Notes: a model not told the origin generated them from the sequence alone. A stretch of DNA of 64,000 nucleotides from Chloroflexota bacterium (GCA_005889135.1 VBEK01000124.1:15658-79657); one strand, 5' to 3'. Shown: positions 16,885 through 34,505, numbered from the stretch's first letter. A program made the numbers and translations.

Positions 16885-17594
16885 GTGGTCGTTTCGAGCG
16901 CCGGCACTCTGCTCTGCGCCAGCACGGCCACTCGGCCGACGGACGGCAGGGCTGCCACATTTTCCTCGGGCGTCTCGGCAAGTCGAATTGTGTCGCCGAC
17001 CCGGAACTCCGTCACCGAGCCACGTCCGACCGGGAGTCGCCAGCTCTCGTCCGCGACGCCATGCAGGGCGACACGTGTGAGCCGGATCATGACCGCGTGT
17101 GTCACGGCGACGACGGCTTCTCCCGGATGCCGCGACCCGATCAGTTGGAGAGCCGCGATCATGCGCCGCTGCGCGTCGATCAGCCGCTCTCCCTGCGGGC
17201 ACACAGCCTCCGTCGGCGATGTGCGGTACAGGGCATGCGCCTCGGGCTCACATGAGGCGGCTTCGTCTGCTGTCATGCCCTCCCACATGCCGTAGTCAAG
17301 GTTGTTGAGGCCATGAAGGATGCGCAGGTCCGGCACGCCGGCTGCATCGGCGATGATCTGTGCAGTAGCAATCGTGCGGCGAAGCGGGCCGGTATAGACC
17401 GCGGCCAGCCCGACAGCAGACAGTCGCCGGGCGGCATCGACGGCGTCCTGGTAGCCCTGTGCATCCAGGGGGATGTCGCGGCGGCCTCTGTATCGATTCT
17501 GTACGTTCATCACGGTAGTGCCGTGCCTGACCAGGTAGAGGCGGCACTCCGGCATCGCGTGGTCGGATTGTGTCAAGAGCCCTTGAGCGCTCAT
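16881..17594 (-). CDS. Histidine phosphatase superfamily (phosphoglycerate-mutase-like) protein
   Basis: 'LYLVRHGTT' RHG motif, 'SGPLRRT'-like 'TGPLRRTIATA', second catalytic His in 'VVAVTHAVMIR'. Confidence 0.85.
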   Translation of the reverse strand: MSAQGLLTQSDHAMPECRLYLVRHGTTVMNVQNRYRGRRDIPLDAQGYQDAVDAARRLSAVGLAAVYTGPLRRTIATAQIIADAAGVPDLRILHGLNNLDYGMWEGMTADEAASCEPEAHALYRTSPTEAVCPQGERLIDAQRRMIAALQLIGSRHPGEAVVAVTHAVMIRLTRVALHGVADESWRLPVGRGSVTEFRVGDTIRLAETPEENVAALPSVGRVAVLAQSRVPALETTT

Positions 17595-19171: not shown

Positions 19172-20652
19172 GTGCGGACCTCCTTTGCTCGGGCATCACG
19201 GTTGATCTGGTCGTCGCTGGTACCGGGCCGCTTGAGACCGGCCGTCGTCAACGCAATCAGCGCGAACATGAGATCGGCTGAGCCCCGATACGTGAGATGC
19301 GGATCGAATGTCATCAGAACCGTCGTCACGATCACCGCGACGAACGTTGCGATGCCGGCGACGCTGCGGGCGCCGGAGTTCCGGCGCGCCGCGTCCCATC
19401 CTCGCTTTGCGGTCGCGACGACGAAGAAGACGAAGCTGGCGAGGAGCGGGATTCCGCCGCCCCACAGCAGCCAGGTATAGCCGCTTTCGATCCAGACGTA
19501 GCCGCTCACCTGCTCGGGCGCCGGGATCCTGGCCGAGGGGCGGACTCCGAGCAGGAAGTTCCAATCCGAGAGCAGCTGCGGCCAGAAGTAGGCCTGAAGG
19601 TTCTGGAGTCGTCCAGTCCAGCTGGTGGGCAGGCCGGAAACGGACTGAAAACCGCTCAACCGGGCGGCCAACACCGGCTGCAACACCAGCGACCCGATCA
19701 GACCGGTGGGCACGAAGATCTTCAGCAGCCCGGCGGAATTTGTGACTGCCGCGATGCACACAACTGCCACGACCAAGCCGATCGCGCTCGAGAACTCACC
19801 GGCCGACAAGGCGCCGACAACAAGCAGACCGGCGGCGCATGCCAGCAGAGGTCGATGTCGCCGGGATTGCATCCACAGCCCGCTGACGATCGCCAGGTTG
19901 TAGACCATCAGATCCGCGGTTGCGGCCGGCAGCGCCAGCGTGGAGCTCCCTCTGGCGGCAAACGCGTCCATCGACCCGTCGTAGCCGAACGGTACGAAGT
20001 AGGTTGCGAGAAGCCGTGGCACACCAAAGAGTTGGAGCGACTGCAGGATTGCCAGCACCGCCACGACGGAGGCGGCAGCGACCGCGATCCAGAGGCATCG
20101 TCTTATCTGTGCCTCGGTACTGACACTCATCCGGACGAGCACGTACAGACCCAGGTACTTCCAGAGCACGAGGCCGTACAGCAGGTCGTCGGTGGTGATC
20201 GGTTGCTGGCGCAGCGTCATCCAGGTCAAGGGCACCACCGAGCTGAAGATCGCAAGCAGCAACATCGAAACTTCGACGCGATCGAGCCTGAGCATGGGGA
20301 ACCGTCCCGCTCGGAGCTGTGCCAGGCGGCGCGTCACGAGGGCAAATCCGATGAGCAAGACCAAAACCTCGTTGGGCCGGAGAAGGGGCACGGCAACGCC
20401 GCGGCTGACACCCACGATCAACGGAGTCACACCGATCAGGAGATACGCTCCGAGCGCCGGCCGCATCCAGATGAAGACGACAAGCCCGACGACCGCAGCC
20501 CCAGCCATCGCCTGCAGCGGCTCGAGGCCCGTTCCCGCGCCGACACCCAGCGCGGCGAGAAGGGTCGCCAAGAGCAACCAGTGATTCGGTATCCATTTCC
20601 AGGCATGACGGGGGATGGCGCTCGTCGGTCGCGCCAGCGTGACGCTAGACAT
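19168..20652 (-). CDS. O-antigen polymerase/ligase-like (Wzy family) membrane protein
   Basis: About 12 hydrophobic helices with one larger loop. Positioned between the flippase and the co-polymerase. Confidence 0.6.
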   Translation of the reverse strand: MSSVTLARPTSAIPRHAWKWIPNHWLLLATLLAALGVGAGTGLEPLQAMAGAAVVGLVVFIWMRPALGAYLLIGVTPLIVGVSRGVAVPLLRPNEVLVLLIGFALVTRRLAQLRAGRFPMLRLDRVEVSMLLLAIFSSVVPLTWMTLRQQPITTDDLLYGLVLWKYLGLYVLVRMSVSTEAQIRRCLWIAVAAASVVAVLAILQSLQLFGVPRLLATYFVPFGYDGSMDAFAARGSSTLALPAATADLMVYNLAIVSGLWMQSRRHRPLLACAAGLLVVGALSAGEFSSAIGLVVAVVCIAAVTNSAGLLKIFVPTGLIGSLVLQPVLAARLSGFQSVSGLPTSWTGRLQNLQAYFWPQLLSDWNFLLGVRPSARIPAPEQVSGYVWIESGYTWLLWGGGIPLLASFVFFVVATAKRGWDAARRNSGARSVAGIATFVAVIVTTVLMTFDPHLTYRGSADLMFALIALTTAGLKRPGTSDDQINRDARAKEVRT

Positions 20653-22366
20653 TGACCACCTCGGCGACCACCCGGTTGTCGTTGGTCCGCCACCGGCCGC
20701 TCAGTCCGGTCGTGAGCCACCCCAGCTCAGGGCTTCGCCACACGGCCTGGACCGCCAAGAACACGGCCGCACCGACCACCACCGCAGCGGCGGTCGAGAG
20801 CTGAGGCGCCAGCGAGCGACCAAGCCAGCTCGGCACGACGTCGGCCACCAACCATGCCGGCGCGGCCATGATCGCTGCCCCGGCGACGAACTTCGCGATC
20901 GATGGCGCCAGCCGCTGCGAGCCGAGCCCGCTGAGGTGGCGCCACACGCGAAAGGTCAGATGTGCCGCGGCTGCGCAGATTGACAGCGACAACGCGAGCC
21001 CAAGGACGACGAGCACGGCGGGCCCATGGACGAGCAGGGATGTGGTCGCCAGTCCAAGGCAGCAACTCGCCTGCACCACCATCGAGATCAGGGGAGTGCG
21101 CGTGTCCTTTCTGGCGTAGGACGCGTAGGTCATGATCACGAAAGCGGTCTGACCGACGACCGCGACGGACAGCGCCGCCAGCGATGCAGCGATCATGGTG
21201 ATGCCTCCGCTCGAAGCCATCCCGCCGAACGAAACTGCCCGGGCCAATGGCATTGCCAGCACCAGGCAGCCCACCGCCGCCGGAATGGCCACCAGGAAGC
21301 CCAGCCCCAGACCGCGGACCAGGGTGTCGCGAAACGCGGTCGCATCGCCCTCGAGGTGATAGCGCGCCAACCGGGGCAGCAAGGACAGTGCCACCGGCGC
21401 AGCGCCAACCGCGATCGCGAGATAGTAGAAGTTCAGAGCGATCTGGAAGGCGATGACTCCGCCGGGCAGACGGTTGGCGATCGTCAGCAGCGTCAGCACC
21501 TGCACTGAGGCCAATCCCGCCTGCGCGATCGAAGGCAGTGCCCTACGGACGACAACGCGGACTTCCGGATCGCGCCACCCCGCTCGTGGCACGATCACCA
21601 CGCCGGCCCGCCGGGCACCCCACCACTGCGTCGCCGCATGCAGGGCGACCGCGCCTGTTGAGCCGAGCCCTAACAGCACCATCTCGCCGGTGGGCACGTC
21701 GTTCAGGGTGGTGCGGGTGCCATAGATCAGGGCAGCGGCGCCGAGGACGGCCATTGTTCCAACGTTCTCGACAGCAGGGGCGCCGGCGGCCAATGCGAAC
21801 CGCCGCCGTGAGTTCATAACCGCTGTGGCCGTGCCCACAACCCCGTAGAGAAAGATCTGCGGGATGAACATGACGATGAGGGCCAGCCCGACTCGCATCT
21901 GTGCAGCCGCCTGCGTCACCTGCGGCCCGCCTCCCAGTGCAGCGAATCCGAGCACCAGCGGTCCGAGAACGATCGCCACCGGCGCGATCAACAGAAGCAT
22001 CAGCAGCGTGATGCCCAGGAAGCCGCCTGCCACCCTTTCCGACCCGCGGCGGTCACCCTTGTCGACGTGGCCGACCAGAGCCGGCACGAGCAGCGAGGAG
22101 AAAAGCGAGCCTGCAAGAAAGCCGTAGTAGATGAGGTTGGGCAGCGAATTGGTGAACTGGTATGTATTGCCGAAGAACGTCGGCCCCAGGACCGCGCCGA
22201 TGACGGCGAATCTGAGCACGCCGGTGGCGCGGCTGGCAATGGTCCATCCAGCCACGGTCATCGAGTCACGCGCGGCAGCGACCGCTTTGAACTGATCTTG
22301 GGCATCGCTGCCGATCTCTGCTCCAGCACCCAGCGCTAGGAGCCGCCCCGGGTCATTGTGCGCCAT
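20645..22366 (-). CDS. MurJ/MviN-family (MOP superfamily) flippase
   Basis: N-terminus 'ASRATGVLRFAVIGAVLGPTFFGNTYQFTNSLPNLIYYGFLAGSLFSSLLVPALV' is MurJ-like. About 14 TM helices. Confidence 0.75.
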   Translation of the reverse strand: MAHNDPGRLLALGAGAEIGSDAQDQFKAVAAARDSMTVAGWTIASRATGVLRFAVIGAVLGPTFFGNTYQFTNSLPNLIYYGFLAGSLFSSLLVPALVGHVDKGDRRGSERVAGGFLGITLLMLLLIAPVAIVLGPLVLGFAALGGGPQVTQAAAQMRVGLALIVMFIPQIFLYGVVGTATAVMNSRRRFALAAGAPAVENVGTMAVLGAAALIYGTRTTLNDVPTGEMVLLGLGSTGAVALHAATQWWGARRAGVVIVPRAGWRDPEVRVVVRRALPSIAQAGLASVQVLTLLTIANRLPGGVIAFQIALNFYYLAIAVGAAPVALSLLPRLARYHLEGDATAFRDTLVRGLGLGFLVAIPAAVGCLVLAMPLARAVSFGGMASSGGITMIAASLAALSVAVVGQTAFVIMTYASYARKDTRTPLISMVVQASCCLGLATTSLLVHGPAVLVVLGLALSLSICAAAAHLTFRVWRHLSGLGSQRLAPSIAKFVAGAAIMAAPAWLVADVVPSWLGRSLAPQLSTAAAVVVGAAVFLAVQAVWRSPELGWLTTGLSGRWRTNDNRVVAEVVNV

Positions 22367-23051
22367 GTGTCGACAGCACCACCGGCACGGTCTTGAACAG
22401 GATTACGAGGTCGAATACGAAGCTCCGCTGACGGACGTACTCGAGGTCCAGGTCGAGCCCCTGCCTCATGGTCAGCTTGTTCCTTCCGCTCACCTGCCAC
22501 AGGCCGGTCAGACCCGGCTCAGCGAGGAAGCGGGCGGAGTAGGCCGGACCGATCAACTCCGCCTCCCACGGAAGTAGAGGGCGGGGCCCGACCAGCGACA
22601 TATCGCCCCGGATGATGTTGACCAGCTGAGGGAGCTCGTCGATGCTCGTCCGTCGCAACAGGCGGCCGACCGGCGTGATCCTCGGATCGTCTTCCAGCTT
22701 GAAGAGACCTCGCGGCCCGCCCATGGGCGGCTGATCTTCAGTTAGAAGCCTGGAGACATACTGCCGGTGGACGTCGTCCGGACTGCCGGCGTACATCGTG
22801 CGGAACTTGTAGAGGACGAACGGCCGACGGTCCCTGCCGATCCTGGTCTGGCGAAAGAAAGGTGAGCCTGGGCTGGTCGCCGACACGATCACGGCGACAA
22901 TCGCAAGCAGTGGGGAAAGCAAGACGAGGCACACGCTTGCGGCGAGAAGGTCGAAGGGTCGCTTGGCGGCGGGCGCCGGTGCCCAAGGGCCTGCCGTGAG
23001 ATCGTCTTCTGGCAAATGCACCCCTTGTCTGACCGGCTCGGGGCGGATCAT
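22353..23051 (-). CDS. Small monotopic polyprenyl-phosphate glycosyl-1-phosphate transferase (PglC/WbaP C-terminal type)
   Basis: 'KRPFDLLAASVCLVLLSPLL', 'FFRQTRIG..RPF.LYKFRTM', 'DELPQLVNIIRGDMSLVGPRP', 'PGLTGLWQVSGRN'. Confidence 0.92.
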   Translation of the reverse strand: MIRPEPVRQGVHLPEDDLTAGPWAPAPAAKRPFDLLAASVCLVLLSPLLAIVAVIVSATSPGSPFFRQTRIGRDRRPFVLYKFRTMYAGSPDDVHRQYVSRLLTEDQPPMGGPRGLFKLEDDPRITPVGRLLRRTSIDELPQLVNIIRGDMSLVGPRPLLPWEAELIGPAYSARFLAEPGLTGLWQVSGRNKLTMRQGLDLDLEYVRQRSFVFDLVILFKTVPVVLSTHGAQ

Positions 23052-23725
23052 CGCTTCGACCCGGCCATCCGGAGCACCGCGTCCGGCGGTCCTGTGAAGC
23101 GGTAGCGACTGACCGAATCCGTCACCGCATCGACTCGGGACTCGATGGCACGGAGGTCGCGGACTTTCCCTCGCACCGCTGCCGGATTGCCGAACGCGAC
23201 AGAGCCGTCAGGAATATCGCGGACAACAACGGCGCCTGCACCGATAAGGCATCCCGCCCCGATGCGCACAAACGGCAGAATCGTCACGTTGACCCCGATC
23301 TGGGCACCGGCCCCGATCTGAGGCCCAGACATCATCGCGGCGGAAGTGGACTGTCCCGGGTAGAGATCGTTGGCGATCGTTACGCCCGGCGCAAGAAAAG
23401 CCCCGTCCTCAATTTCGGTGAACTGCGCGATGTAGCAGTTCGAGTGGATCTTGACTCGGTCACCAATCCGGCAGCCGTAATCCACCACCGAGTTACTCCA
23501 TACGGAGACGTCGTCGCCGATACGGCAGTCTTCGCGGATGATCACGTTGTGGCCGGTTTGGAACCGGGCTCCGATCGTCGACCCGAAATAGACCACCGTG
23601 CCGCTACGAATACATGCGTCTTGTCCCAGCGAAAGATCGGATGGCGCGGTCCGCGCGGAGGGGTAGCCGATGATCGCGCTTGGGTCCGATCGCAGCCCGT
23701 CTCCCACGATCACGTCAGGCAACAT
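23048..23725 (-). CDS. Left-handed beta-helix (hexapeptide) sugar N-acetyltransferase
   Basis: Tandem hexapeptide repeats ('IGDDVSVWSNSVVDYGCRIGDRVKIHSNCYI', 'IGAGAQIGVNVTILPFVRIGAGCLIGAGAVV'). Internal ATG 23725. Confidence 0.85.
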   Translation of the reverse strand: MLPDVIVGDGLRSDPSAIIGYPSARTAPSDLSLGQDACIRSGTVVYFGSTIGARFQTGHNVIIREDCRIGDDVSVWSNSVVDYGCRIGDRVKIHSNCYIAQFTEIEDGAFLAPGVTIANDLYPGQSTSAAMMSGPQIGAGAQIGVNVTILPFVRIGAGCLIGAGAVVVRDIPDGSVAFGNPAAVRGKVRDLRAIESRVDAVTDSVSRYRFTGPPDAVLRMAGSKR

Positions 23726-24842
23726 GCACCTCAGCTGCGGACACCGCCTCCAGAACCGCATCACAGACCTGGGTGATTTGGTCATCGCGCATGTGCGGGA
23801 AGATCGGCAGCGAGAGGATTTCGGATGCTGCCGCCTCGCTGACGGGCAAGCGCCCGTCCGCGAAGCGCAGGTACGGATCTTGCCGATGACACGGAATCGG
23901 GTAATGGATCGAGCTCTGAATCCCTTGCGTTGCGAGGTGTTGCTGAATCCGCGTGCGCTGGGGCACGCGCGCGACCGCGAGGTGGTAGACGCCCTGCCCC
24001 CCGGGTGTGTCCTCGACCAGGCGGACGGGGGACGAGGCAAACGCGGCCCTGTATCGCATCATGATCGACCGGCGAGCCTCGTTCCACTCGTCCAGCCGGG
24101 CGAGCTTGGCGTTCAACACGACCGCCTGGATCGCATCCAGACGGCTGTTGGTGCCGATCAATTCGTGTCGGTAATGGGATCCAGCCATGCGGCCGTGGTC
24201 GCGCACACTCCTGATCCGGTTGGCGAGATCAGCGTCGGCAGTGACCACGGCGCCGGCGTCGCCGAACGCACCGAGGTTCTTGCCGGGATAGAAACTGAAG
24301 GAGCCCGCCCGTCCCATTGACCCGGCCGGCCGGCCCCGCCACGTCGCACCGTGAGCCTGGGCCGCATCCTCGATGATCACGACCCCGGCCCTGTCAGCCG
24401 CGCGACCAAGCGAGTCCATGTCGGGCATCTGCCCGTACAGATGGACGACGATCACTGCGCGGGTCCGGTTGGTGATCGCGGCCTCGAAGTCAGCGCTGGT
24501 GAGCAGCAAAGTCTGCGGACTTACGTCGGCGAAACGGGGTGTCGCCCCCGCAAGGACAACCGCCTCCGCGGTGGCGACAAACGTGTTGGTAGGAACAATC
24601 ACTTCGTCGCCGGGTCCGATGCCCAAAGCCATCAGCGTCAGCTGCAGAGAGTCAGTTCCATTAGCCACGCCGATCGCGTGCGGCGCTCCGCAGTATTCCG
24701 CCCACGCCTCCTCAAACTCCACGACCGCCTCGCCGCCGATGAAAGCGCTGCGCTCGAGCAGCTGCGCCCAGCCCTGGTCGATCGCGGGGCGAACTTCGCG
24801 GGTCATCGCGGCAAGGTCGGTGAAAGGCACGTGGACGCTCAT
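23715..24842 (-). CDS. DegT/DnrJ/EryC1/StrS-family PLP-dependent sugar aminotransferase
   Basis: 'GVANGTDSLQLTLMALGIGPGDEVIVPTNTFVATAEAV', 'SFSFYPGKNLGAFGDAGAV'. ATGA overlap with the upstream gene. Confidence 0.92.
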   Translation of the reverse strand: MSVHVPFTDLAAMTREVRPAIDQGWAQLLERSAFIGGEAVVEFEEAWAEYCGAPHAIGVANGTDSLQLTLMALGIGPGDEVIVPTNTFVATAEAVVLAGATPRFADVSPQTLLLTSADFEAAITNRTRAVIVVHLYGQMPDMDSLGRAADRAGVVIIEDAAQAHGATWRGRPAGSMGRAGSFSFYPGKNLGAFGDAGAVVTADADLANRIRSVRDHGRMAGSHYRHELIGTNSRLDAIQAVVLNAKLARLDEWNEARRSIMMRYRAAFASSPVRLVEDTPGGQGVYHLAVARVPQRTRIQQHLATQGIQSSIHYPIPCHRQDPYLRFADGRLPVSEAAASEILSLPIFPHMRDDQITQVCDAVLEAVSAAEVHVA

Positions 24843-26032
24843 ACCGCCTCCGAGCTCGGCAAGGTCACCAGCGGCGCTTGCTCGGCCGGCGACCCATCGC
24901 CGGAACCATTTGCGTGTGCGGAAGCCAAATGGTTGCCGTTGCCCCAGCCGATCGAGCGAAAGACGTGGCTCTCGACACGTATCTCCTCGAGCAAGACCGG
25001 GCGGCCCAGGCGGCGCGACAGCTCCGCCGCTTCGAGCGTCTCGACCACAGCGAGGCCGTTGGCCCCATCGGTCAGGGGCTGGGTTCCAGTGGCGATGCAA
25101 TCGACAAGGTGCCGGTCCTGCAACGAAAGTGGCTCGTCCGCGGGAATGAATGGAACCACGATGTCGCCGTACCGATACGAAGTCGGCGGCTGACTGAGGT
25201 TGGCTCCATCCGGCGGCAGACTTACGCCTTTGTCGAGGACTCGGATCCGCTCGTCGGCGGCGAGGTCGTCATAGACGGCCATCTTCTTGCTGCCGACGGC
25301 GGTAACCCGCCGAACTTTGCACGGGTCCAGCCAGCTGACGTGGATGTTTGCGGACAAGCCACGGCCGTCGAACACATCGTCATAGAACAGCCGGAGGTAG
25401 GCGACATCCTCGAATCGGCGGTGAGCGTGGCGCGCCGCCCAGGCGTCGACCGCGACCGGCTTGCGGTCGAGCACGTGGTTGATGATCGAGACGTCGTGTG
25501 GCGCCAGGTCGAAAATGACGTTGACGTCGTTCTGGTAGAGGCCGAGGTTCAGCCTCGCGCTGTCGATGTAGTAGAGCTCGCCCAGCTCTTGACTGCGCAC
25601 GAGCTCGCGAAGCTTCCTAACCGCCGGGTTGTACTCAAAGGTGTGCCCGACCATGAGAATGACGCCGGCTTCTGTCGCCGCCTTGATCAGCCGCCTTGCC
25701 CCGGCGGTCGTAGGCGCCAGCGGTTTCTCGACCAGGACGTGCTTGCCTGCCGCGATAGCCTCCAGAGCGACTGGCACGTGCATGCTCGGCGGCGTCGCGA
25801 CCACCACGGCGTCCACGTGAGGCAGCGCGGACCTTAGTTCCGCATAGCACGGCGCCGTCTTGAAGTTGCGGGCCAGAGCCTGCAAGCGGTCGGCGCGGCT
25901 GTCGACGATGCTTACCTCGGCGACGCCGTCGAGCGCATGAAGGACGCGGACGTGCTTCGAGCCCCAGTACCCGCACCCGACCACGGCGACCCGGAGTCCG
26001 TCACCTGTTCCCCCCTCCATCAAGGGGTCCAC
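24839..26032 (-). CDS. Gfo/Idh/MocA-family NAD-dependent sugar oxidoreductase (WbpB-like)
   Basis: Rossmann 'LRVAVVGCGYWGSKH', 'HVLVEKPLA'. Immediately upstream of the aminotransferase and acetyltransferase. Confidence 0.85.
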   Translation of the reverse strand: MDPLMEGGTGDGLRVAVVGCGYWGSKHVRVLHALDGVAEVSIVDSRADRLQALARNFKTAPCYAELRSALPHVDAVVVATPPSMHVPVALEAIAAGKHVLVEKPLAPTTAGARRLIKAATEAGVILMVGHTFEYNPAVRKLRELVRSQELGELYYIDSARLNLGLYQNDVNVIFDLAPHDVSIINHVLDRKPVAVDAWAARHAHRRFEDVAYLRLFYDDVFDGRGLSANIHVSWLDPCKVRRVTAVGSKKMAVYDDLAADERIRVLDKGVSLPPDGANLSQPPTSYRYGDIVVPFIPADEPLSLQDRHLVDCIATGTQPLTDGANGLAVVETLEAAELSRRLGRPVLLEEIRVESHVFRSIGWGNGNHLASAHANGSGDGSPAEQAPLVTLPSSEAV

Positions 26033-26154: not shown

Positions 26155-27888
26155 CTAGGAGGTCGCGAAGTCGCGCCGGCCGACGAACCCCTCTTCCTCG
26201 AGGTGGCGCAGGATCAGCTCGGCCGCTTCGTCCGCCCCGATTTCCGAGGTGTCGATGGTGACCTCGGCGTCCTCGGGAAGCTCGTATGGGTCGGAGATGC
26301 CGGTGAAGTCCTTGATCATGCCGGCCCTCGCCCTTGCATACAGGCCTTTGCGGTCGCGCTGCTCGCAGACTTCGAGCGGGGCCGCGAGGTGGACGAGCAC
26401 GAAGCCGCCGTGGGCCTCGACCATCGCGCGCACTGCCTTGCGGGCGGCGTCGTAGGGCGCAATCGGGGCACAGATGGCGATCCCGCCGTGCCTGGTGATC
26501 TCGGCAGCCACAAACCCGATCCGCTGGATGTTCAGATCGCGGTGCTCCCGGGAGAACCCCAGCTCACTGGACAGGTTCTTGCGGACAACGTCGCCGTCCA
26601 GCATGGTGATCGTGCGGCCACCCCGCTCCAGCAGCCTGGCGTTCAGGATTTTGGAAACGGTCGATTTGCCCGACCCGGAAAGGCCGGTGAGGAACACCGT
26701 GAAGCCCCGCTCCCGACGCGGACGATAGCTACGCCGAAGCTCACCGGCGACCTCGGGAAAAGTGAACCAGTCGGGAACCTGCTCCCCCGATGTCAGCCGC
26801 CGACGGAGCTCTGTGCCGGAGATGGTGTGGGCGGCCAGACCGCTCGGGACCTCGTCCTCGGGAAGGTACGCGTCCAGCTGGCCCACGTACACCAATGTCG
26901 GGAACGAGACCATCGCGATGCCGATCTCTGCCTCGAACTGGCGAAGCAGGTCCTGGGCGTCGAACGGTCCGTAGAACGAGCGACCGTTAAGCCGTTTACC
27001 TGGCCCGGCGTGATCCCGGCCGACGATCAGGTGCGTGCACCCGAAGTTGCGTCGAACGATCGCGTGCCACAGGGCTTCCCGCGGCCCGGCCATGCGCATC
27101 GCGAGCGGCAGCAAGGCGAGCATCGCGGTGTCTTCCGGGTAGCGGTGCATCAGCGCCTTGTAGCACCGCACCCGGGTGTAGTGGTCGATGTCGCCGGGCT
27201 TCGTCATGCCGACCACCGGGTTGATGAGCAGCTTCGCGCCGACGGCGTCGGCCGCGCGCAACGTCAACTCCTGATGGACGCGGTGCATCGGATTGCGGGT
27301 TTGAAACCCGACGACCCTTGACCAGCCCTGCCGGGCCATGGCTGCTCTGACCTGTCTCGGTGTCATTCGCAGCTCGGGGAAGTCGAAGTGGCTGGGAAGG
27401 TGCACTCCCTCCACCGTCCCGCCGACGTAGACGGGATGGGTCTGATCGAGGAGAAACGCCACGCCAGGATGGTCGCGGCTGCCGGTCCCATAGACCTGCC
27501 TGGCCTCCGCTTTGCGGTCCGGCCGGTAGAGGTCTTCGACGTGGAGAACCGCGAGCAGGGCTCCCTCGGGGTCCCGAAGGCCGAGCACGGTGCCCGGGGT
27601 CAAATCCTTCGCCGCCTCCTCGGTCACGTCAAGCACGATCGGTATCGGCCAGAGCGCACCGTTGGCCAGACGCATGTCCTGGCAGACGGACTCATAGTCC
27701 AGCCCATTCATGAACCCGGTCAGGGGCATAAAGCCGCCATTGAGCAGCAGCTCGAGGTCACAGAGCTGTCTCTCGGTCAGGTTCCAGGAGGGGGCGCGAA
27801 GGCCGGCCCGAACCACCTCGGCACGGCGCTGGGGAGCCGCGATAAGGTCGCTGCCGCCGGCATCCTCGCGCAGCTTCTCGACAATCAT
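26155..27888 (-). CDS. Bifunctional sulfate adenylyltransferase / adenylylsulfate kinase (PAPS synthase, Sat-CysC fusion)
   Basis: ATP-sulfurylase 'GFQTRNPMHRVHQEL' and 'HLIVGRDHAGPG'. APS kinase P-loop 'FLTGLSGSGKSTV', 'LDGDVVRKNLSSELGFSREHRDLNIQRIGFVA'. Confidence 0.93.
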   Translation of the reverse strand: MIVEKLREDAGGSDLIAAPQRRAEVVRAGLRAPSWNLTERQLCDLELLLNGGFMPLTGFMNGLDYESVCQDMRLANGALWPIPIVLDVTEEAAKDLTPGTVLGLRDPEGALLAVLHVEDLYRPDRKAEARQVYGTGSRDHPGVAFLLDQTHPVYVGGTVEGVHLPSHFDFPELRMTPRQVRAAMARQGWSRVVGFQTRNPMHRVHQELTLRAADAVGAKLLINPVVGMTKPGDIDHYTRVRCYKALMHRYPEDTAMLALLPLAMRMAGPREALWHAIVRRNFGCTHLIVGRDHAGPGKRLNGRSFYGPFDAQDLLRQFEAEIGIAMVSFPTLVYVGQLDAYLPEDEVPSGLAAHTISGTELRRRLTSGEQVPDWFTFPEVAGELRRSYRPRRERGFTVFLTGLSGSGKSTVSKILNARLLERGGRTITMLDGDVVRKNLSSELGFSREHRDLNIQRIGFVAAEITRHGGIAICAPIAPYDAARKAVRAMVEAHGGFVLVHLAAPLEVCEQRDRKGLYARARAGMIKDFTGISDPYELPEDAEVTIDTSEIGADEAAELILRHLEEEGFVGRRDFATS

Positions 27889-27956: not shown

Positions 27957-28727
27957 CTATCGCCGCTGGGGACGCGGCCCTGGGACTGCCGGCGATGAGC
28001 TGGGCATCTGTCCCATCGAAGCGGGCACGTCCGCGGCGGCGGGGCCGCTCACGGTATCGCCGTGCGTATCCAACGCCCAGCGATGAACGCCCTCGGCGGG
28101 AAGCTGGCAGCGGATGTAGTGCTTGCTCCCGCCTCTGACGCCGACCGTCCGATCGAGTCGATAGCCGAGCCGAGAGAGCGCGGCCAGCATCCTTTCGTCG
28201 GTCACCTGTCCCTCGATCTCCTGTGCTCCGAGCCGTTCGGCGTGGACGATCCAGGCGGCGTGGAGCTGCAGAAAGAACAGCGGCGGGACGCGATGCGTGC
28301 GAGCGTCTTTTGAGATCGCTTCGTACATTGAAACCGCCAAGGCGGATCGGCTGGGAGCACGAGGCCTGACCATCCAGCGAACGAGGCCTCGCACGTAGCC
28401 CGGCGTCTCGTATGGGCGACGGAGGATCGCCAGCGCGACCCCGGCCGCGACGGTAGGCATGTGCCGGCGGACCATCCGCCTCATGAAACGAGACTTGTCC
28501 AGAGTCCCAACGCTGTAACCGACCAGCCGGCCCTCGAGCTTCGCGGCCAGGGTGACCTCATCCGCGAACTCTTCAAAGAGGCGGATGAGGACGCGTTCCC
28601 CGGCCAGGGTGAAGAGGTCGTCAGGGAAGCTTCGCGTGTGCAGGCGGGCGGCCGCCGGCGCGTCGTCCCGAGTCAACACCCCGATCGTCAGGGAGGGAAG
28701 GGTGCCCGCCGATTGGTGCCCCGTCAC
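27957..28727 (-). CDS. GNAT-fold acyltransferase (start uncertain)
   Basis: 'LEGRLVGYSVG', 'HAERLGAQEIEGQVTDERMLAALSRLGY' fits the GNAT core. GTG 28727 lies 4 nt after the ACP stop. The ATG at 28817 would overlap the ACP gene by 86 nt. Confidence 0.55.
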   Translation of the reverse strand: MTGHQSAGTLPSLTIGVLTRDDAPAAARLHTRSFPDDLFTLAGERVLIRLFEEFADEVTLAAKLEGRLVGYSVGTLDKSRFMRRMVRRHMPTVAAGVALAILRRPYETPGYVRGLVRWMVRPRAPSRSALAVSMYEAISKDARTHRVPPLFFLQLHAAWIVHAERLGAQEIEGQVTDERMLAALSRLGYRLDRTVGVRGGSKHYIRCQLPAEGVHRWALDTHGDTVSGPAAADVPASMGQMPSSSPAVPGPRPQRR

Positions 28728-28731
28728 CCGC

Positions 28732-29019
28732 TCAGGAGACCCTTTGCCCGTCTGGCTTCGCCGGCGAACCGTTCGTGGGCTTGAGCTTCGCGGCGAGCGC
28801 GGATCGCAGGCGCTCATAGCTCACGAGCTCGCCCATCTCGTCTTCGGAAAATCGGACTCCGAACTCCTGCTCCACGGAGACGATCATGGAAAAATGCTGA
28901 AGCGAGTCCCAAAGCTCGACGTTCTCGATCGATGTCGTGTTGTCGATCGTCGACGGATCCAGCTCAAAAACCTCGGCCAGGATCTGCTTCAGGCTCAACT
29001 CCTCCGCGTCGCCCATCAT
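28732..29019 (-). CDS. Acyl carrier protein
   Basis: 95 aa. Phosphopantetheine site 'ELWDSLQHFSMIVSVEQEFG'. ATGA overlap with the FkbH stop. Confidence 0.82.
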   Translation of the reverse strand: MMGDAEELSLKQILAEVFELDPSTIDNTTSIENVELWDSLQHFSMIVSVEQEFGVRFSEDEMGELVSYERLRSALAAKLKPTNGSPAKPDGQRVS

Positions 29020-30899
29020 CCCGCCGCTGCTCCTGCTTGGGCGTTGGTGGGGAGCTCGACGGATGCGAACCACGCCGGCACCGAGGGATCCGAGTCGCCC
29101 AACATCAGGCTCCAACCGGAATCGTCCCCTGGTTGGCGGCTAAAGCCGTGATCGGGATAGAAGGTGGACACAGCCTGGTTGCGCGCGGTCGCCGCATACG
29201 TGCCATGCAAGCGCCGGTAGCCCAGCGCCTCAGCCTGGATGGCGGTCGCATGCAGAAGCACGTCTTCGACGCCTCGACCCAGCACGCGACAGCTCAGTAG
29301 GAACGTGTCGATCTCGGCCTCGCCGGCGTCAGCGCCCCGAACCACGATCGCGACTCCAACCAATCCAGCGTCTCCAAAGCGATCGCTCACGCGAATCGAG
29401 AGGATTTCGACGCCAGGTTTGCGTGCCAGCTGAGTGAGCTCCTCTGTCGTGTACCGACGCGTCGTGAGGTTGAATTGATTGGTCTTCTGGGTCAGCTGCG
29501 CAATTCTGGTGGCTGAGATGTGGTCGATTCGCCGTACCTCGGCCGTCATTCCGAGTGATCGATAGTACTCATCCAGAGTCGAAGCCGATTCCTGGGCAGC
29601 CTGGCGTGCCTGCTCGTTTCTGTAGAGCTCGACGCGGCGCCGATCTTCGTCGGTCACCCCTACGGCATCGAAGCAGTCGAGCGATTCGATCGCCGCTCGC
29701 AACTCACTGAGTTCCGCCGGCAACTGGACAACGAGCACCATTGGAAGCAAGCTCCTGACCATTTCACATTGATGCGGATCGTCGTCGACAAAAACCAACG
29801 AGTCCAGTCCAACGTTCAAATCGGATGCGATCGCGCGCAAGTTCGTGGCTTTGTTGGTCCAATTCACGCGCTTCGCAGAGATATCCGACTTACGCAGGAC
29901 CATCGAAGGATGGTGGTCGAAGACTTCGTCCACGTCAGCTTCGTTGTTGGCGCTGCACAAAGCCAGAAGAACCCCGCGCTTACTCAGATTGAGTGCCGCT
30001 TCCTGAAGGCCGACATAAGCGATGCCGGGGTATGAGTCACCGAGCCTGATTCCGCCTATGTGGTCCTCGCCGATGACGCCGCCCCACAAGGTGCCATCAC
30101 AGTCGAGGACAAGAACCTTGCGGGACCTTCCTGCACGCGCTTTGAGAATTCGAGCGTAGACGTCGCTCAGCTGTTCGAGGATCGCCGGCGTGAAGGGCGC
30201 CCGGGCGGCCAACCAGTTCCGAGCATCGATCGGTGACCTTTCGGCGATCCTCTCGAAGTCAACGATGAACACGTTCCCCATGCCGCTCGCGATGGCGCCG
30301 AGCTCCTGGTTCAGGGCTCGAACGCGACTGGTGAGGCTGGTCATCGAAGTAGCTTCGGCCAGGCCCTCGGGCGCGTTTCTCGGCAGGGCAAAATTGTGGA
30401 TGGCGATGGTTGCGGTGGTGCGCTCATTGATGGCGGCAACGATTCGGCGAATGCTCGAAACCGTCTGCTCGGCCGCCTCAGACGCCTGCGATCTGCTAAG
30501 CGTCAGATACCGGTTGAACAACGTTGGTGCGAGGTTCTCGAGACTCAGCGCGATGACGACAACATCTGGTTGATACTCGAACAGCCAACTTCCCGCCGTC
30601 AAAGAGTCGCGCATAGAAGTGTCATATCCGCCGATCCGCACGTCCACTGCAAAGCCGGCGGCAGCGCCCTTGACGGACGCGTACGCGTCGAGTGGTTCGA
30701 CGGTGAAGTTCCTCAGGACCGCGACTCGGATGCGCGGCCAATCCGGAGGAGTCACCATGCGCAAACGGCGCGCCGCAGCCAGGTATCGACTTAAGGTCGG
30801 CTTGTCCACGACCCAGGCGACAAGGCTCTCAGCATCGCCCGGGATGGCGACGTTGACTTGAGCGGGCACTTTCGAGTCATCGCCTGCAGCGATTACCAC
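29016..30899 (-). CDS. FkbH-like HAD-IIIC phosphatase/acyl-loading enzyme
   Basis: HAD motif I 'VLVLDCDGTLWGGVIGED', 'VFVDDDPHQCEMV'. C-terminal domain has the catalytic-Cys-type motif 'FLLSCRVLGRGVED'. Confidence 0.85.
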   Translation of the reverse strand: MVIAAGDDSKVPAQVNVAIPGDAESLVAWVVDKPTLSRYLAAARRLRMVTPPDWPRIRVAVLRNFTVEPLDAYASVKGAAAGFAVDVRIGGYDTSMRDSLTAGSWLFEYQPDVVVIALSLENLAPTLFNRYLTLSRSQASEAAEQTVSSIRRIVAAINERTTATIAIHNFALPRNAPEGLAEATSMTSLTSRVRALNQELGAIASGMGNVFIVDFERIAERSPIDARNWLAARAPFTPAILEQLSDVYARILKARAGRSRKVLVLDCDGTLWGGVIGEDHIGGIRLGDSYPGIAYVGLQEAALNLSKRGVLLALCSANNEADVDEVFDHHPSMVLRKSDISAKRVNWTNKATNLRAIASDLNVGLDSLVFVDDDPHQCEMVRSLLPMVLVVQLPAELSELRAAIESLDCFDAVGVTDEDRRRVELYRNEQARQAAQESASTLDEYYRSLGMTAEVRRIDHISATRIAQLTQKTNQFNLTTRRYTTEELTQLARKPGVEILSIRVSDRFGDAGLVGVAIVVRGADAGEAEIDTFLLSCRVLGRGVEDVLLHATAIQAEALGYRRLHGTYAATARNQAVSTFYPDHGFSRQPGDDSGWSLMLGDSDPSVPAWFASVELPTNAQAGAAAG

Positions 30900-32110
30900 G
30901 TCGTCGTCTCCCAGGTGGCGGCGACAGCGCCCGCTGGAATCTGCCCGGGAGGGATATCAAACCGAGTTCGCCACCACCGCGCCACGTCGAGTGGCAGGGC
31001 GCTCCACATGTCGTTTCGATTCGCCATCTCGGCGAGGAACGCCTCGTACACGTTCCACGTCCTCGGCCGGCGAAGGTAGTCAGGGTGCGAGTTCAGCAAC
31101 GCCATCCCGCGATGTGCGGCGATGAACTCGACCTTTTCGAGCCACAAGTGGGGAGACGACTCGCCCAGGATCTCCGTCAGCGTGTAGTCCTGGACGAGGG
31201 TGTACGGCAACTCGACGAACCGTCCAAGGATGAACGGCCAGAGGCTCATTGTGCCGCCGGGAATCGGTTCAAAGGGGTCCGAATCGAAGAAGGAAAGATC
31301 GTACTCAACGTCGAGCGCCTGCATCCATTCCGGATTACGGTGTGTGAGCGCGGTTCGGAAGCCGGCCGCGCCTGTGCGGGCCAGCTCAGCGTTGATGCGC
31401 GGCGCGCGTGAGTCGAAGATCGCGCGAGATCGGAACAGCTTTCCATCGTGATTCAGATCGTGGACTCCAACTTCGAATCCCCGAGCCCTCAGCTCGGAGA
31501 TGAGACCCGGGTCGGTGCGATACCGTTCCGGCACGAAGTTGAAAGACGAACGAAATCCGTATCGCTCCTCAAGTTCGACCACTCTGATGACGAAGTCGAG
31601 GCCTTCGCGTTGCTCTACGTCGTGGGTCAGAACAAACGCAAGGTGGCGGTCATCCGGCCAGATGCTTACGTAGGTGGCGCGGTCGAGCCCGCGCTCGTCC
31701 AGCACGTGGAAAAGCACAGCCCGCAAGAAGTCGGCGTAGCGCGATTCACACGGCCACTCGAGGCCGGCACCGCTGCCGTGATCGCGTCCATAGACGCGCC
31801 GAAGCCAGCCGATTGCGGCACGCGGAAGGAGCGGCTTCAGGTCGTAATAGATCTGTTTCACGGTTCCGAGCTTCCAGTGGTCCTCCCCGAACTGACCCTC
31901 GCTGAGGACGGCCTCCATCAGCCCGCCCGGATGCTGAACACGTGCTGTTACGGATGGCGGAAGGAGGTGGGCGGCCTGCGCGATAGCGTCGCCCCATTCT
32001 TGCGTGGTCGGCAGTGGATCGAGCAGCTTCCAGAAGGCCTCAGGGCTGTTGCCCGCGCACAGCGGCACCGAAGCCGGCGTGCGCATTGCTTCTTTGGATG
32101 ACGAGGTCAC
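30893..32110 (-). CDS. Polysaccharide deacetylase-like (CE4-like) protein
   Basis: 'FVLTHDVEQREGLD', 'FEVGVHDLNHDG', 'GFRTALTHRN' resemble NodB-type metal/catalytic motifs. GTGA overlap with the GT4 stop. Confidence 0.5.
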   Translation of the reverse strand: MTSSSKEAMRTPASVPLCAGNSPEAFWKLLDPLPTTQEWGDAIAQAAHLLPPSVTARVQHPGGLMEAVLSEGQFGEDHWKLGTVKQIYYDLKPLLPRAAIGWLRRVYGRDHGSGAGLEWPCESRYADFLRAVLFHVLDERGLDRATYVSIWPDDRHLAFVLTHDVEQREGLDFVIRVVELEERYGFRSSFNFVPERYRTDPGLISELRARGFEVGVHDLNHDGKLFRSRAIFDSRAPRINAELARTGAAGFRTALTHRNPEWMQALDVEYDLSFFDSDPFEPIPGGTMSLWPFILGRFVELPYTLVQDYTLTEILGESSPHLWLEKVEFIAAHRGMALLNSHPDYLRRPRTWNVYEAFLAEMANRNDMWSALPLDVARWWRTRFDIPPGQIPAGAVAATWETTTW

Positions 32111-33369
32111 CGGAAACCGTCTCGGCCGTCAGCCGTGGCTGCCTGGAAAGCGCCGCGGCGATCGTCGCGCGAATCATCGCCGGCAGATGCTCCGTCCAGC
32201 CTCGGGTCGGAGAGGCCGAGGGCTTCGCGATAGCGGCCCGACACCGACTCCCAGGCCAAGCTGTGCATGACAGTCCGGGCCAGACGCGCCTGTCGCCGGG
32301 CAGCAGAGGGGTCGGCCAGCAGCCTGTGCACCTGCGCCGCGAGGCCGGCGGCATCGCCGGGATCGAAGTACGCCAGACAGTCCTCCGGGAAGTGCTCTTG
32401 AATCGCCGGCAGGCGCGAGCAGACGACGGGAACCCCAAGTGCCGCGAACTCGAGGACCTTGTTAGGGAGACAAAGATCTCCGTACCCATCGGAAAGCATC
32501 GGGACAAGGCCGAGCGCCGCCTGGCGAACATGCTCCATCATGCGCGGCCAGGGCAGGAATCCGTGCGAGAAATGCACGCGATCGTCCAGCCCCAGGCGGC
32601 CGGCCAGTTCGACCAGCGACGGCTCGCTCTCTCCTTGGCCGAGGATGCGAAGCGTGAGCGTGGGCCATTCGCCCGTCAGCCTCGCCATCGCCTGAATGGC
32701 GATGTCAACCCCATATCGCGGGATCAGGGTGGTCTGGATGACGAGAAACGCCGGCTCGGAAGGCGTGGACGAGCCCAAGCCGGCGACTGGATGGGAATTT
32801 GGAACCACCGTCACCTTGTCACTCGCGAGTCCGCGGCGGACCAAGATCCGCCGGCACGGCTCACTGACCGTGATGACGTGATCGACCCAGCTGGTCGCCG
32901 CCCGCTCTATCGAGGTCGCGACCCGGACAGGCAACGCCTGTCGATCGAGTCCTAGCCGAGCGGCCGTCAGCTCCGGCATCAGCTCCATCGAGAACAGCAC
33001 GATTCTCGACCTGCGAATCCGCGCCAGCACAGTCGTGAAGACGAGGAAGTCCGGGGTGTTCTCGACTTCGATCACGTCGTAGCGCCGTCCCAAGCCGAGG
33101 AGCGAAACGACAAAAAGCGCCCAAAGGAAAAAAGTCACGTAATGAACCGGATACCAGAAGGCATGTGAGCGCCGAGCTCTGATAGGGACGCCGTAAAGGC
33201 GCAGGCCGGGCTGATCCACGACTGGGCTTGCCCACCGGAAGCTGGCGGTCAGACACACGACGTCAACGTTCAGCCTCCAGTTGATCAGCTGCGTCACGTT
33301 TCGTCGCAGGGTGGTCCCTATCGGGTAGGGATGGCGGCTAACCACGAGGACGCGCCGGCCGTCCGTCAT
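32107..33369 (-). CDS. Glycosyltransferase family 4 (GT-B, group 1)
   Basis: C-terminal 'LGLVPMLSDGYGDLCLPNKVLEFAALGVPVVCSRLPAIQEHF' (E-x7-E region). Internal ATG 33369 gives an ATGA overlap with the upstream gene. Confidence 0.85.
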   Translation of the reverse strand: MTDGRRVLVVSRHPYPIGTTLRRNVTQLINWRLNVDVVCLTASFRWASPVVDQPGLRLYGVPIRARRSHAFWYPVHYVTFFLWALFVVSLLGLGRRYDVIEVENTPDFLVFTTVLARIRRSRIVLFSMELMPELTAARLGLDRQALPVRVATSIERAATSWVDHVITVSEPCRRILVRRGLASDKVTVVPNSHPVAGLGSSTPSEPAFLVIQTTLIPRYGVDIAIQAMARLTGEWPTLTLRILGQGESEPSLVELAGRLGLDDRVHFSHGFLPWPRMMEHVRQAALGLVPMLSDGYGDLCLPNKVLEFAALGVPVVCSRLPAIQEHFPEDCLAYFDPGDAAGLAAQVHRLLADPSAARRQARLARTVMHSLAWESVSGRYREALGLSDPRLDGASAGDDSRDDRRGAFQAATADGRDGFR

Positions 33370-34505
33370 GACGCGAGCCCCGGAAGCCGACCGTACAGGA
33401 GCTCCCCGGTGAGCCGGCAAACGACCGATGGCGAACTCTGGATGATTCTTGCCATGATCTGGCGGCTCAACCCTGGCCAAGGCGCGGGTCGGGCGGTGGT
33501 CACATACGAATAGTTCAGCGGTATCTCTACGGCGCCCCAGCGTCGCTTGAACTCACGAAGGCCGTGGTTGTCGATGTCGCTCCGCCCGAAGTCGAGGTCG
33601 CGATAGCCGTGCACACAAGCCCATTCGATGGCGGTCCACATGACGAGGTTGTTGGGGCGAAGGTCCCAGAAACGGGCATCGGAGGCCCCGTACTTGTAGA
33701 TCACGTGGTCGTTCCAGGCGAGATAAACGGCTCCCGCGATTGGTTGGCCATCCTTTTGGGCGAGGACGACAAACCCGAGTCCACGATCGATGACCAGTCG
33801 CCATAGGAGGCGGAAAAAGCGCTTGGGCTGAACCGGAACGCCCTGGCGCCGGCGGGTCTCTACGTGCAGCTGATAAAAGGTATCGGTGTCGGCCTCCGTC
33901 CGTGAGATCCGCGCGGTCACGCCCTCGCGTTGCGCTTTTTTGATCGCGCGATCCACCTGATTGCCTTTGATGCGTCGCAGGTACTCCTCCCTGGTGCAGT
34001 CGAGCGGGAGGAGGTGGCGGACCGCTCGCGATACCACGTGGATGCCCGCAATCGACGACATGTCACCGTGCACGACGAGCTGATGGATGTGGCCGCTGCG
34101 TTGCCACCGAAGGAGCGCGGTGGTCAGCGCGGCGAGAGAGTCTTCGCTCGTCGCAAGCGGGGGACAGTAGTCAGTGAAAGGAAGGGCGGTGAAACGCCGC
34201 CGGGGGCTTAACCGCTGGACTTCGAGCGTCGGAATTCCAGCTGCCACGGCGCCATTGGTATCGTCCTGGAGCAGGACCGACGGTCGGTAACCGTAGGCTG
34301 CAACCAGCACCTGCGACCACGCGGGATGGTGGAACACCGTCGCCTCCCTGTGCGAACCGGCAAATTCCAACCAACGTCGATCATCAAGCCCCGTAACGGC
34401 CAGCCCTGGCGCCGGGCCTGGCATCAGCCCGGGCTCGCCGTCGAAGCTGTCTGTGGTGGGGCGAAGATGCTGGCGTTGTTCGGAAGGCACGGGAATCAGA
34501 GCCAT
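33366..34505 (-). CDS. FemAB-related / GNAT (Acetyltransf_6-like) protein
   Basis: 'VFHHPAWSQVL', 'GAVYLAWNDHVIYKYGASDARFWDLRPNNLVMWTAIEWACVHGYRDLDFG'. Confidence 0.7.
   Translation of the reverse strand: MALIPVPSEQRQHLRPTTDSFDGEPGLMPGPAPGLAVTGLDDRRWLEFAGSHREATVFHHPAWSQVLVAAYGYRPSVLLQDDTNGAVAAGIPTLEVQRLSPRRRFTALPFTDYCPPLATSEDSLAALTTALLRWQRSGHIHQLVVHGDMSSIAGIHVVSRAVRHLLPLDCTREEYLRRIKGNQVDRAIKKAQREGVTARISRTEADTDTFYQLHVETRRRQGVPVQPKRFFRLLWRLVIDRGLGFVVLAQKDGQPIAGAVYLAWNDHVIYKYGASDARFWDLRPNNLVMWTAIEWACVHGYRDLDFGRSDIDNHGLREFKRRWGAVEIPLNYSYVTTARPAPWPGLSRQIMARIIQSSPSVVCRLTGELLYGRLPGLAS

Follow-up and report, generated by a model that had tools for sequence, protein, structure and literature searches.

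The window analyzed here is a 64,000-nucleotide stretch of DNA from an uncultured Chloroflexota bacterium (GCA_005889135.1, VBEK01000124.1:15658-79657) with a G+C content of ~62-70%, and its minus strand carries a single long operon that runs from 34505 to ~16030. The operon is counted at 17 genes, of which sixteen are listed, most of them with overlapping junctions, and it is of the Wzy type for surface polysaccharides. Three consecutive genes between positions 27957 and 30899 are predicted to encode an FkbH-type glyceryl-acyl carrier protein (ACP) synthase of 627 amino acids (29016..30899, with a GTG start), an ACP of 95 amino acids (28732..29019), and a divergent acyltransferase of the GNAT fold with 256 amino acids (27957..28727, also with a GTG start). 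An initial annotation had described these genes as an FkbH-ACP-GNAT module embedded in a polysaccharide operon; the gene identities and minus-strand positions are borne out by family matches and, for the GNAT, by structure prediction, and the setting is borne out by the flanking glycan genes. Judged from sequence, the three family assignments are strong and not a matter of chance. The evidence leans, by a modest amount, toward reading the trio as a carrier-protein acylation cassette, one that would tailor a single sugar in the polysaccharide repeat unit through an "acetyl swap".

The FkbH protein matches TIGR01686 with 282 bits (cut-off 146.65) over residues 260-588 and the HAD-IIIC family TIGR01681 with 57.8 bits, and it combines an N-terminal, SGNH-like FkbH_N domain with a HAD-IIIC phosphatase and a C-terminal Cys domain. 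Residues 52-414 match the structure of Bacteroides fragilis BF1531 (PDB 3slr, E 4e-40), the motif DCDGTLWGG begins at residue 266, and LLSCRVLGRG begins at residue 534. In an alignment of 120 sequences, comprising the query and homologs that are mostly 39-47% identical, at least 97% of the proteins share D266, D268, K350, D372, D373, and S536-C537-R538, and the segment QLTQKTNQFN (468-477) is conserved to the same degree except for K472. A second, independent alignment of 26 sequences has D266, D268, T270, K350, D372-D373, and S536-C537-R538 invariant, leaving the key Cys and Asp residues of this enzyme family intact in both alignments. Cys537 is presumably the residue that carries the glyceryl group as a thioester. 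The SGNH-like N-terminal domain was also considered as a transferase, yet a canonical site is unlikely, as the position of the GDS serine reads RNFT when the sequence is inspected.

Among polyketide homologs, FkbH enzymes are proposed to convert 1,3-bisphosphoglycerate into glyceryl-S-ACP (PMC7489565). The FkbH proteins of tetronate and methoxymalonyl-ACP pathways, including Mad7/Mad8 and Mad14/Mad12 of tetromadurin, FkbH of FK520, and OzmB, belong to the same TIGR01686 family, lie next to a small ACP, and share the DxD, Lys, DD, and Ser-Cys-Arg residues with the protein in the window, and the same substrate and product are proposed for them (PMC7489565). These systems build carbon chains with the glyceryl unit, whereas an amide on a sugar is proposed for the cassette described here.

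The ACP matches PF00550 with 27.2 bits (cut-off 20.8) and is 76% identical to the ACP of a syntenic relative, L003. Its phosphopantetheine serine lies within WDSL, and its ATG overlaps the TGA of FkbH as ATGA; both the serine and the translational coupling are as the initial annotation had them. The sole 4′-phosphopantetheinyl transferase (PPTase) detected in the genome, of which 5% is missing, is of the AcpS type (C45:8495-8812, within a 419-amino-acid open frame, locus L007) and shares a contig with the operon, lying ~7 kb before the start of the window and ~36 kb from FkbH. Ketosynthases in the genome are limited to one of the FabF type and small fragments, and the genome scan shows no modular polyketide synthase (PKS).

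It is conceivable that FkbH and the ACP supply the synthesis of a small molecule or lipid, such as a tetronate, a methoxymalonyl extender, or a glycolipid, and that their position in the operon is incidental, since the FkbH enzymes characterized to date all belong to pathways for polyketides or non-ribosomal peptides. Yet Pfam and NCBIfam scans of the operon found no FabH-like tetronate synthase, FkbG/I/K-type genes, O-methyltransferase, PKS, or ketosynthase, the genome appears to lack a modular PKS, translational coupling joins the pair to the glycan genes on either side of it, and the arrangement is conserved in independent metagenomes. Because the partner genes are missing, a PKS or tetronate role was rejected, and a small-molecule or lipid product in general is the least likely of the alternatives considered, with a very low probability.

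The GNAT gene begins with a GTG codon 4 nt past the stop of the ACP gene, a start with which the N-termini of its homologs agree. The protein has no match in Pfam or NCBIfam even at an E-value of 10. An AlphaFold model built from a 15-sequence alignment (mean predicted local distance difference test score, pLDDT, 75) has the strand and helix order of a GNAT plus a three-helix insert, and a Foldseek search of this model against the PDB returned exclusively GNAT N-acetyltransferases, with a probability of 1.0 and a best E-value of 8e-8. Searching 1.84 billion representative proteins with a profile yielded no more than 3 clusters at E<1e-30, along with 174 weak matches; the weak matches that were checked carry Pfam Acetyltransf_1 (PF00583), and several are fused to a family 4 glycosyltransferase (GT4). 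With 15 close relatives in a word-based homolog search, the protein in the window represents a rare and divergent GNAT lineage. After strand 4, the relatives display R143-x-x-G146-x-P, which resembles the acyl-CoA pyrophosphate motif Q/R-x-x-G-x-G/A. In the loci of these relatives, the neighbor of the GNAT gene is always the ACP or a vicinal oxygen chelate (VOC) gene belonging to the same FkbH subclade.

Directly upstream of FkbH lies a gene for a 405-amino-acid protein (30893..32110, minus strand), the stop of which overlaps the start of FkbH. This protein has no significant match in Pfam; its AlphaFold model (pLDDT 88) retrieves polysaccharide deacetylases, ArnD, and the O-antigen protein WbmS in Foldseek searches, and it is annotated here as a deacetylase-like protein of the NodB fold (carbohydrate esterase family 4, CE4), similar to VimE. 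Its invariant residues are H163, D164, H217, H221, H342, and D344. More than 7800 homologs were found, some of which are fused to a GNAT of the type encoded by the third gene of the cassette (ORF3). Three of these CE4-GNAT fusions, each of 625 amino acids (P0069, P0072, and P0125), have C-terminal parts that match the GNAT profile (to residues 409-588, E 6e-9 to 2e-7). At locus L110 (6675-8744), a CE4 homolog (phmmer E 2e-130) is followed immediately by P0260, the sole GNAT homolog that is clearly related but distant (E 9e-50); FemAB-like, DegT, and Gfo genes and a second deacetylase gene lie nearby, and no FkbH or ACP gene was found within 8 kb of P0260. Gene order and fusions alike thus connect the GNAT lineage with the CE4 enzyme, and in the lineage of the window FkbH-ACP(-VOC) sits exactly between the two. 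Given this tie, the likeliest chemistry would be deacetylation of an amino sugar followed by its re-acylation with glyceryl from the ACP, and the link to a VimE-like deacetylase in both gene order and fusions is what suggests the acetyl-swap mechanism.

The same operon is present on independent metagenome contigs, with FkbH proteins that are 75-81% identical to that of the window, and its recurrent order is FemAB-GT4-CE4-FkbH-ACP-(VOC)-GNAT-PAPSS-WbpB/E/D-PGT-MurJ, where PAPSS is a 3′-phosphoadenosine-5′-phosphosulfate (PAPS) synthase and PGT the initiating sugar transferase. Four of these relatives (L003, L020, L112, and L113) have an additional Glyoxalase_4 (VOC) gene encoding 138-147 amino acids between ACP and GNAT (L020:6524-6940, L003:9580-10023, and L112:6395-6811), whereas the window, L114, and L115 are without it, the corresponding site in the window being 28727-28735. 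DNA comparison gives 91 nt in the window versus ~490 nt in L020 and L003, and no VOC homolog was detected in the window or elsewhere in the whole genome, so the VOC-less form is a natural variant rather than an assembly error. The VOC protein resembles enzymes of the methylmalonyl-CoA epimerase type, so that it may epimerize C2 of the ACP-bound acyl group, and the presence or absence of its gene may then set the stereochemistry of the substituent. None of 60 related genomes contains the GNAT, and two of them contain FkbH, which there belongs to a different subclade (37% identity) and has its own adjacent ACP; the cassette therefore varies within the genus. In L003 (GCA_009772815.1), a second, partial copy of ACP and GNAT lies beside the PAPS synthase gene (17730-18970), and downstream of the first ACP/GNAT copy lie gene fragments and a remnant of an IS21-family insertion sequence, which suggests rearrangement mediated by the insertion sequence.

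The co-occurrence of FkbH and ACP in glycan loci, which the initial annotation had held to be worth surveying, was followed across taxa with one genome per species. Relatives of FkbH occur in at least 595 species genomes from numerous bacterial phyla as well as several lineages of archaea. Neighborhoods were taken from the best 80 loci, 78 of which hold a full FkbH; an ACP adjoins FkbH in 69 of the 78 (67 directly downstream and 2 directly upstream), and a ketosynthase lies within 8 kb in none of them. A VOC gene is present in 19 of the 78 loci, 11 times immediately upstream of FkbH, and genes for MaoC/short-chain dehydrogenase/reductase (SDR) proteins were counted in 19, small hexapeptide proteins in 12, FemAB-like proteins in 9, and DegT proteins in 9. 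By Pfam assignment, the gene after the FkbH-ACP pair encodes a MaoC protein (10), an AAC(3)-type N-acetyltransferase (7), an SDR (6), a hexapeptide protein (6), a methyltransferase (5), or a GNAT (3-5); the gene before the pair, in 67 loci, encodes an SDR (7), a hexapeptide protein (7), a methyltransferase (6), a Glyoxalase_4 protein (5), a sulfotransferase (3), or a PPTase (3), the last being dedicated enzymes of the ACPS type. N-acyltransferases thus often flank the pairs, with 9 of the AAC(3) type, 13 hexapeptide proteins, and ~5 GNATs.

Archaeal metagenome-assembled genomes (MAGs) with a full-length FkbH and an adjacent ACP are represented by L035, L051, L054, L070, L072-L074, and L087, and the archaeal hosts of such pairs include Promethearchaeota, Thorarchaeota, Woesearchaeota, Nitrososphaerales, and Methanospirillaceae. 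Polysaccharide loci of Capsulimonas corticalis and of a Verrucomicrobium also hold such cassettes, and one further locus, L022, combines VOC, FkbH, sulfotransferase, and deacetylase genes with a heparinase-like gene. The cassette type is widespread and not unusual, which makes the window one more instance of it. What is particular to the window is its rare GNAT transferase, the link to a CE4 enzyme, and the VOC polymorphism.

The remaining genes of the operon, all on the minus strand, would place the cassette in a pathway for an amino sugar. The first gene encodes a FemAB-family, VimA-like protein (33366..34505; Acetyltransf_6 1.8e-23, FemAB 2.9e-11), for which the match to TIGR03019 pepcterm_femAB reaches 135.6 bits, below the cut-off of 260 bits. 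It is followed by a GT4 glycosyltransferase in a VimF-like position (32107..33369; Glyco_trans_1_4 5e-18, Glyco_trans_4_4 2e-13), whose ATG at 33369 overlaps the FemAB stop, and then by the CE4-like gene and the cassette. After the GNAT come a bifunctional sulfate adenylyltransferase/adenylylsulfate kinase, that is, a PAPS synthase (26155..27888; NF004040 863.8 bits, cut-off 669); a WbpB-like sugar 3-dehydrogenase of the Gfo/Idh/MocA family (24839..26032; GFO_IDH_MocA 3.5e-29), with 195 bits, below the cut-off, for NF040723 UDP-GlcNAc 3-dehydrogenase; a WbpE-like DegT aminotransferase (23715..24842; PF01041 2.9e-113), whose ATG at 24842 overlaps the upstream stop; and a WbpD-like hexapeptide N-acetyltransferase (23048..23725, with a start at 23725 or 23713; Hexapep 2.2e-28), which scores 90 bits, below the cut-off, for NeuD/PglB/VioB TIGR03570.

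The operon then continues with genes for assembly, namely an initiating sugar transferase (22353-23051; Bac_transf 3.6e-62), a MurJ-type flippase (20645-22366; MurJ 8.6e-43), a polymerase-like membrane protein without a Pfam match (19168-20652), and a Wzz/BY-kinase-like co-polymerase with GNVR and AAA_31 matches (17591-19171); a histidine phosphatase gene comes next. The last gene, with a GTG start that overlaps the histidine phosphatase stop, encodes a 284-amino-acid protein without a Pfam or PDB match (16033-16884). A P-loop-like motif in this protein, GYTRCGTTF, had made it a candidate sulfotransferase, but this was dropped, as Pfam and PDB searches were unsupportive and PF13469 was unmatched genome-wide. 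Sulfation is nevertheless suggested by the PAPS synthase gene after the GNAT.

By protein family, this gene set resembles the Wbp/Vim system of Porphyromonas gingivalis and Tannerella forsythia, in which WbpA/B/E/D make a diacetamido uronic acid and VimF is a glycosyltransferase; VimE, a CE4 enzyme, removes the 2-N-acetyl group, and VimA, of the TIGR03019 family, adds Ser or Gly to the freed amine (PMC7468200). The likeness in family type covers the WbpB/E/D-like, CE4, FemAB, and GT4 proteins of the operon, with the TIGR03019 and WbpB-type scores below their cut-offs. The two systems differ in that the window adds FkbH-ACP-GNAT beside CE4, lacks WbpA in the operon, and lacks a type IX secretion context, and it would be a carrier protein that supplies the acyl group, where the Wbp/Vim system adds an amino acid.

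Such an exchange of acyl groups has parallels in lipid-modified glucosamine pathways. In Nod-factor synthesis by NodB/NodF/NodA and lipid A synthesis by LpxC/LpxD, a de-N-acetylase exposes the amine of glucosamine and an acyl-ACP-dependent transferase re-acylates it, with NodB being a CE4 enzyme and NodF a dedicated ACP. The acyl groups of these pathways are, however, fatty acyl groups of the fatty acid synthase type, NodA and LpxD are not GNATs, and the ACP is loaded by an enzyme other than FkbH.

The proposed route begins with glycolysis and ends at the cell surface, and we infer each of its functional steps. FkbH would take 1,3-bisphosphoglycerate, remove the phosphate with its HAD domain, hold the glyceryl group on Cys537, and load it onto the ACP's phosphopantetheine arm, as family membership and the conserved residues suggest. 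The WbpB/E/D-like enzymes would build a 2,3-diacetamido sugar, from which the VimE-like CE4 enzyme would remove one N-acetyl group, on the precedent of Wbp/Vim. With the GNAT as the transferase, the amine so exposed would then receive the ACP-bound glyceryl, yielding an N-glyceroyl amino sugar; gene order, co-distribution, and the CE4-GNAT fusions point to this transfer. The N-acetyl group would thus most likely be replaced by a glycolysis-derived glyceric-acid group. Alternatively, the FemAB/VimA-like enzyme may add an amino acid whose α-amine would serve as the acceptor. Finally, the modified sugar would enter the lipid-linked repeat unit, to be flipped, polymerized, and possibly sulfated via PAPS. 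The initial annotation had instead assigned the acceptor sugar to an adjacent aminotransferase, but the DegT gene (23715-24842) is not adjacent, being three genes downstream, and its product is a less likely acceptor because the gene lies at that distance and is overlap-coupled to its own WbpD-like acetyltransferase.

Several observations weigh against this route. The substrate and product assigned to an FkbH in a glycan locus are extrapolated from polyketide homologs, and the organism is an uncultured MAG. The usual donor of GNAT enzymes is acyl-CoA, and in the loop equivalent to the CoA-pyrophosphate motif the GNAT of the window carries Arg146 (codon 28290-28292), at a position occupied by Gly in 14 of 15 relatives. 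The GNAT homolog of L110, which lacks FkbH and ACP nearby, indicates that the GNAT family is independent of a carrier protein, and hexapeptide transferases are common partners of FkbH-ACP elsewhere. The FemAB-like and WbpD-like proteins are two further N-acyltransferases in the same operon. A WbpA-type UDP-GlcNAc 6-dehydrogenase was found neither in the operon nor on the contig of the window, with four UDPG_MGDP_dh genes located elsewhere in the genome, and no sulfotransferase partner for the PAPS synthase was recognized in the operon or in the PF13469 genome scan.

In a different division of labor, the GNAT would be an ordinary acyl-CoA transferase that caps the amine freed by CE4 and does not act on the ACP, and glyceryl-ACP would be off-loaded by another enzyme: the WbpD-like hexapeptide protein acting on the 3-amine made by DegT, the FemAB-like protein, or the C-terminal domain of FkbH. 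The occurrence of the L110 homolog beside CE4 with FkbH and ACP missing favors this division, as do the share of hexapeptide transferases among sampled FkbH-ACP neighbor genes (13/143) and a genome of the same genus ordered LbH-DegT-ACP-FkbH, where LbH denotes a left-handed β-helix (hexapeptide) enzyme; the LbH enzymes LpxA and LpxD are classic users of acyl-ACP. On the other hand, in the lineage of the window FkbH-ACP(-VOC) fits precisely into the space separating CE4 from GNAT, the genes either overlapping or being 4 nt apart, and the GNAT subclade is found only alongside the FkbH subclade of the window. The LbH gene of the window, moreover, is overlap-coupled to DegT and its product resembles acetyl-CoA-using enzymes of the WbpD/PglD type, and a deacetylation followed by re-acetylation would be futile. 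On balance, an acyl-CoA-dependent GNAT with a separate off-loading enzyme is regarded as unlikely, and transfer of the ACP-bound group by the GNAT itself remains the preferred explanation.

The identity of the transferred group is a separate matter, as this clade of FkbH could load, or the pathway deliver, another C2-C3 acyl group in place of plain glyceroyl, for example lactyl, glycolyl, pyruvoyl, or a glycerate bearing a sulfate or methyl group. Pairs from other genomes often occur with a MaoC dehydratase and an SDR (the 19/78 loci noted above), methyltransferases, and sulfotransferases, and the PAPS synthase gene after the GNAT would suit a sulfated group. In non-ribosomal peptide synthetases (NRPSs) of the aeruginosin type, the glycerate that FkbH loads is proposed to undergo methylation and sulfation (PMC10143770). 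The AerB NRPS of suomilide and varlaxin uses FkbH-loaded glycerate as an N-acyl cap (PMC10143770), to which the PAPS synthase behind the cassette adds a further likeness; its domains, however, are fused in an NRPS module with a peptide acceptor, whereas those of the window are free-standing proteins with a presumed sugar acceptor. The operon itself has no dehydratase, reductase, or methyltransferase for such changes, the search for a sulfotransferase was negative, and the key residues of FkbH are the same as in the wider family. A group other than plain glyceroyl is accordingly rated as quite improbable, and N-glyceroyl is retained as the expected substituent of the cassette.

Campylobacter jejuni cj1302, a gene of the flagellar glycosylation locus (PMC7099621), and B. 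fragilis BF1531 both encode FkbH-domain proteins in bacteria with richly decorated surface glycans, and a glyceroyl-type substituent has been reported on the nonulosonic acid of C. jejuni 11168 (bioRxiv 10.64898/2026.04.20.719630). These cases differ from the window in their acceptors, which are nonulosonic acids or unassigned, and in their partner genes. Surface sugars with N-glyceroyl and related short hydroxyacyl groups exist, for example Pse5Am7Gra in T. forsythia, and the genes responsible have been called "elusive" (PMC5378307, PMC6120980). The literature searched contains no function of FkbH or glyceryl-ACP in a glycan context, its papers being concerned with polyketides and peptides apart from one mention of cj1302, which agrees with the view of the initial annotation that an FkbH-based route to a glycan substituent is undescribed. 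The chemistry of FkbH-ACP is already known, and its use in glycan decoration does not appear in the literature searched.

Considered jointly, the window and the surveyed loci allow a broader proposal, which is put forward tentatively and with somewhat less than even confidence. FkbH-ACP pairs, combined with interchangeable N-acyltransferases (GNAT, AAC(3)-type, or hexapeptide) and with tailoring genes (VOC epimerase-like proteins, MaoC/SDR, methyltransferases, and sulfotransferases), may constitute a large, cross-phylum, and unrecognized class of glycan-tailoring systems in bacteria and archaea. Through these systems, surface sugars would acquire N-glyceroyl, N-lactoyl, and related groups drawn from 1,3-bisphosphoglycerate, and in the lineage of the window the presence or absence of VOC would switch the stereochemistry in a serotype-like manner. 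The copy in the window, which belongs to an uncultured MAG, is a less convenient test case than the cassettes of cultured bacteria.

If this broader proposal is true, it would supply the missing genetic basis of such groups in Tannerella, Campylobacter, and others. If the cassette does install N-glyceroyl groups, a loader of the polyketide type would gain a second major role in cell-surface biology, and the genes behind antigenic variation in many glycans would become predictable by sequence.

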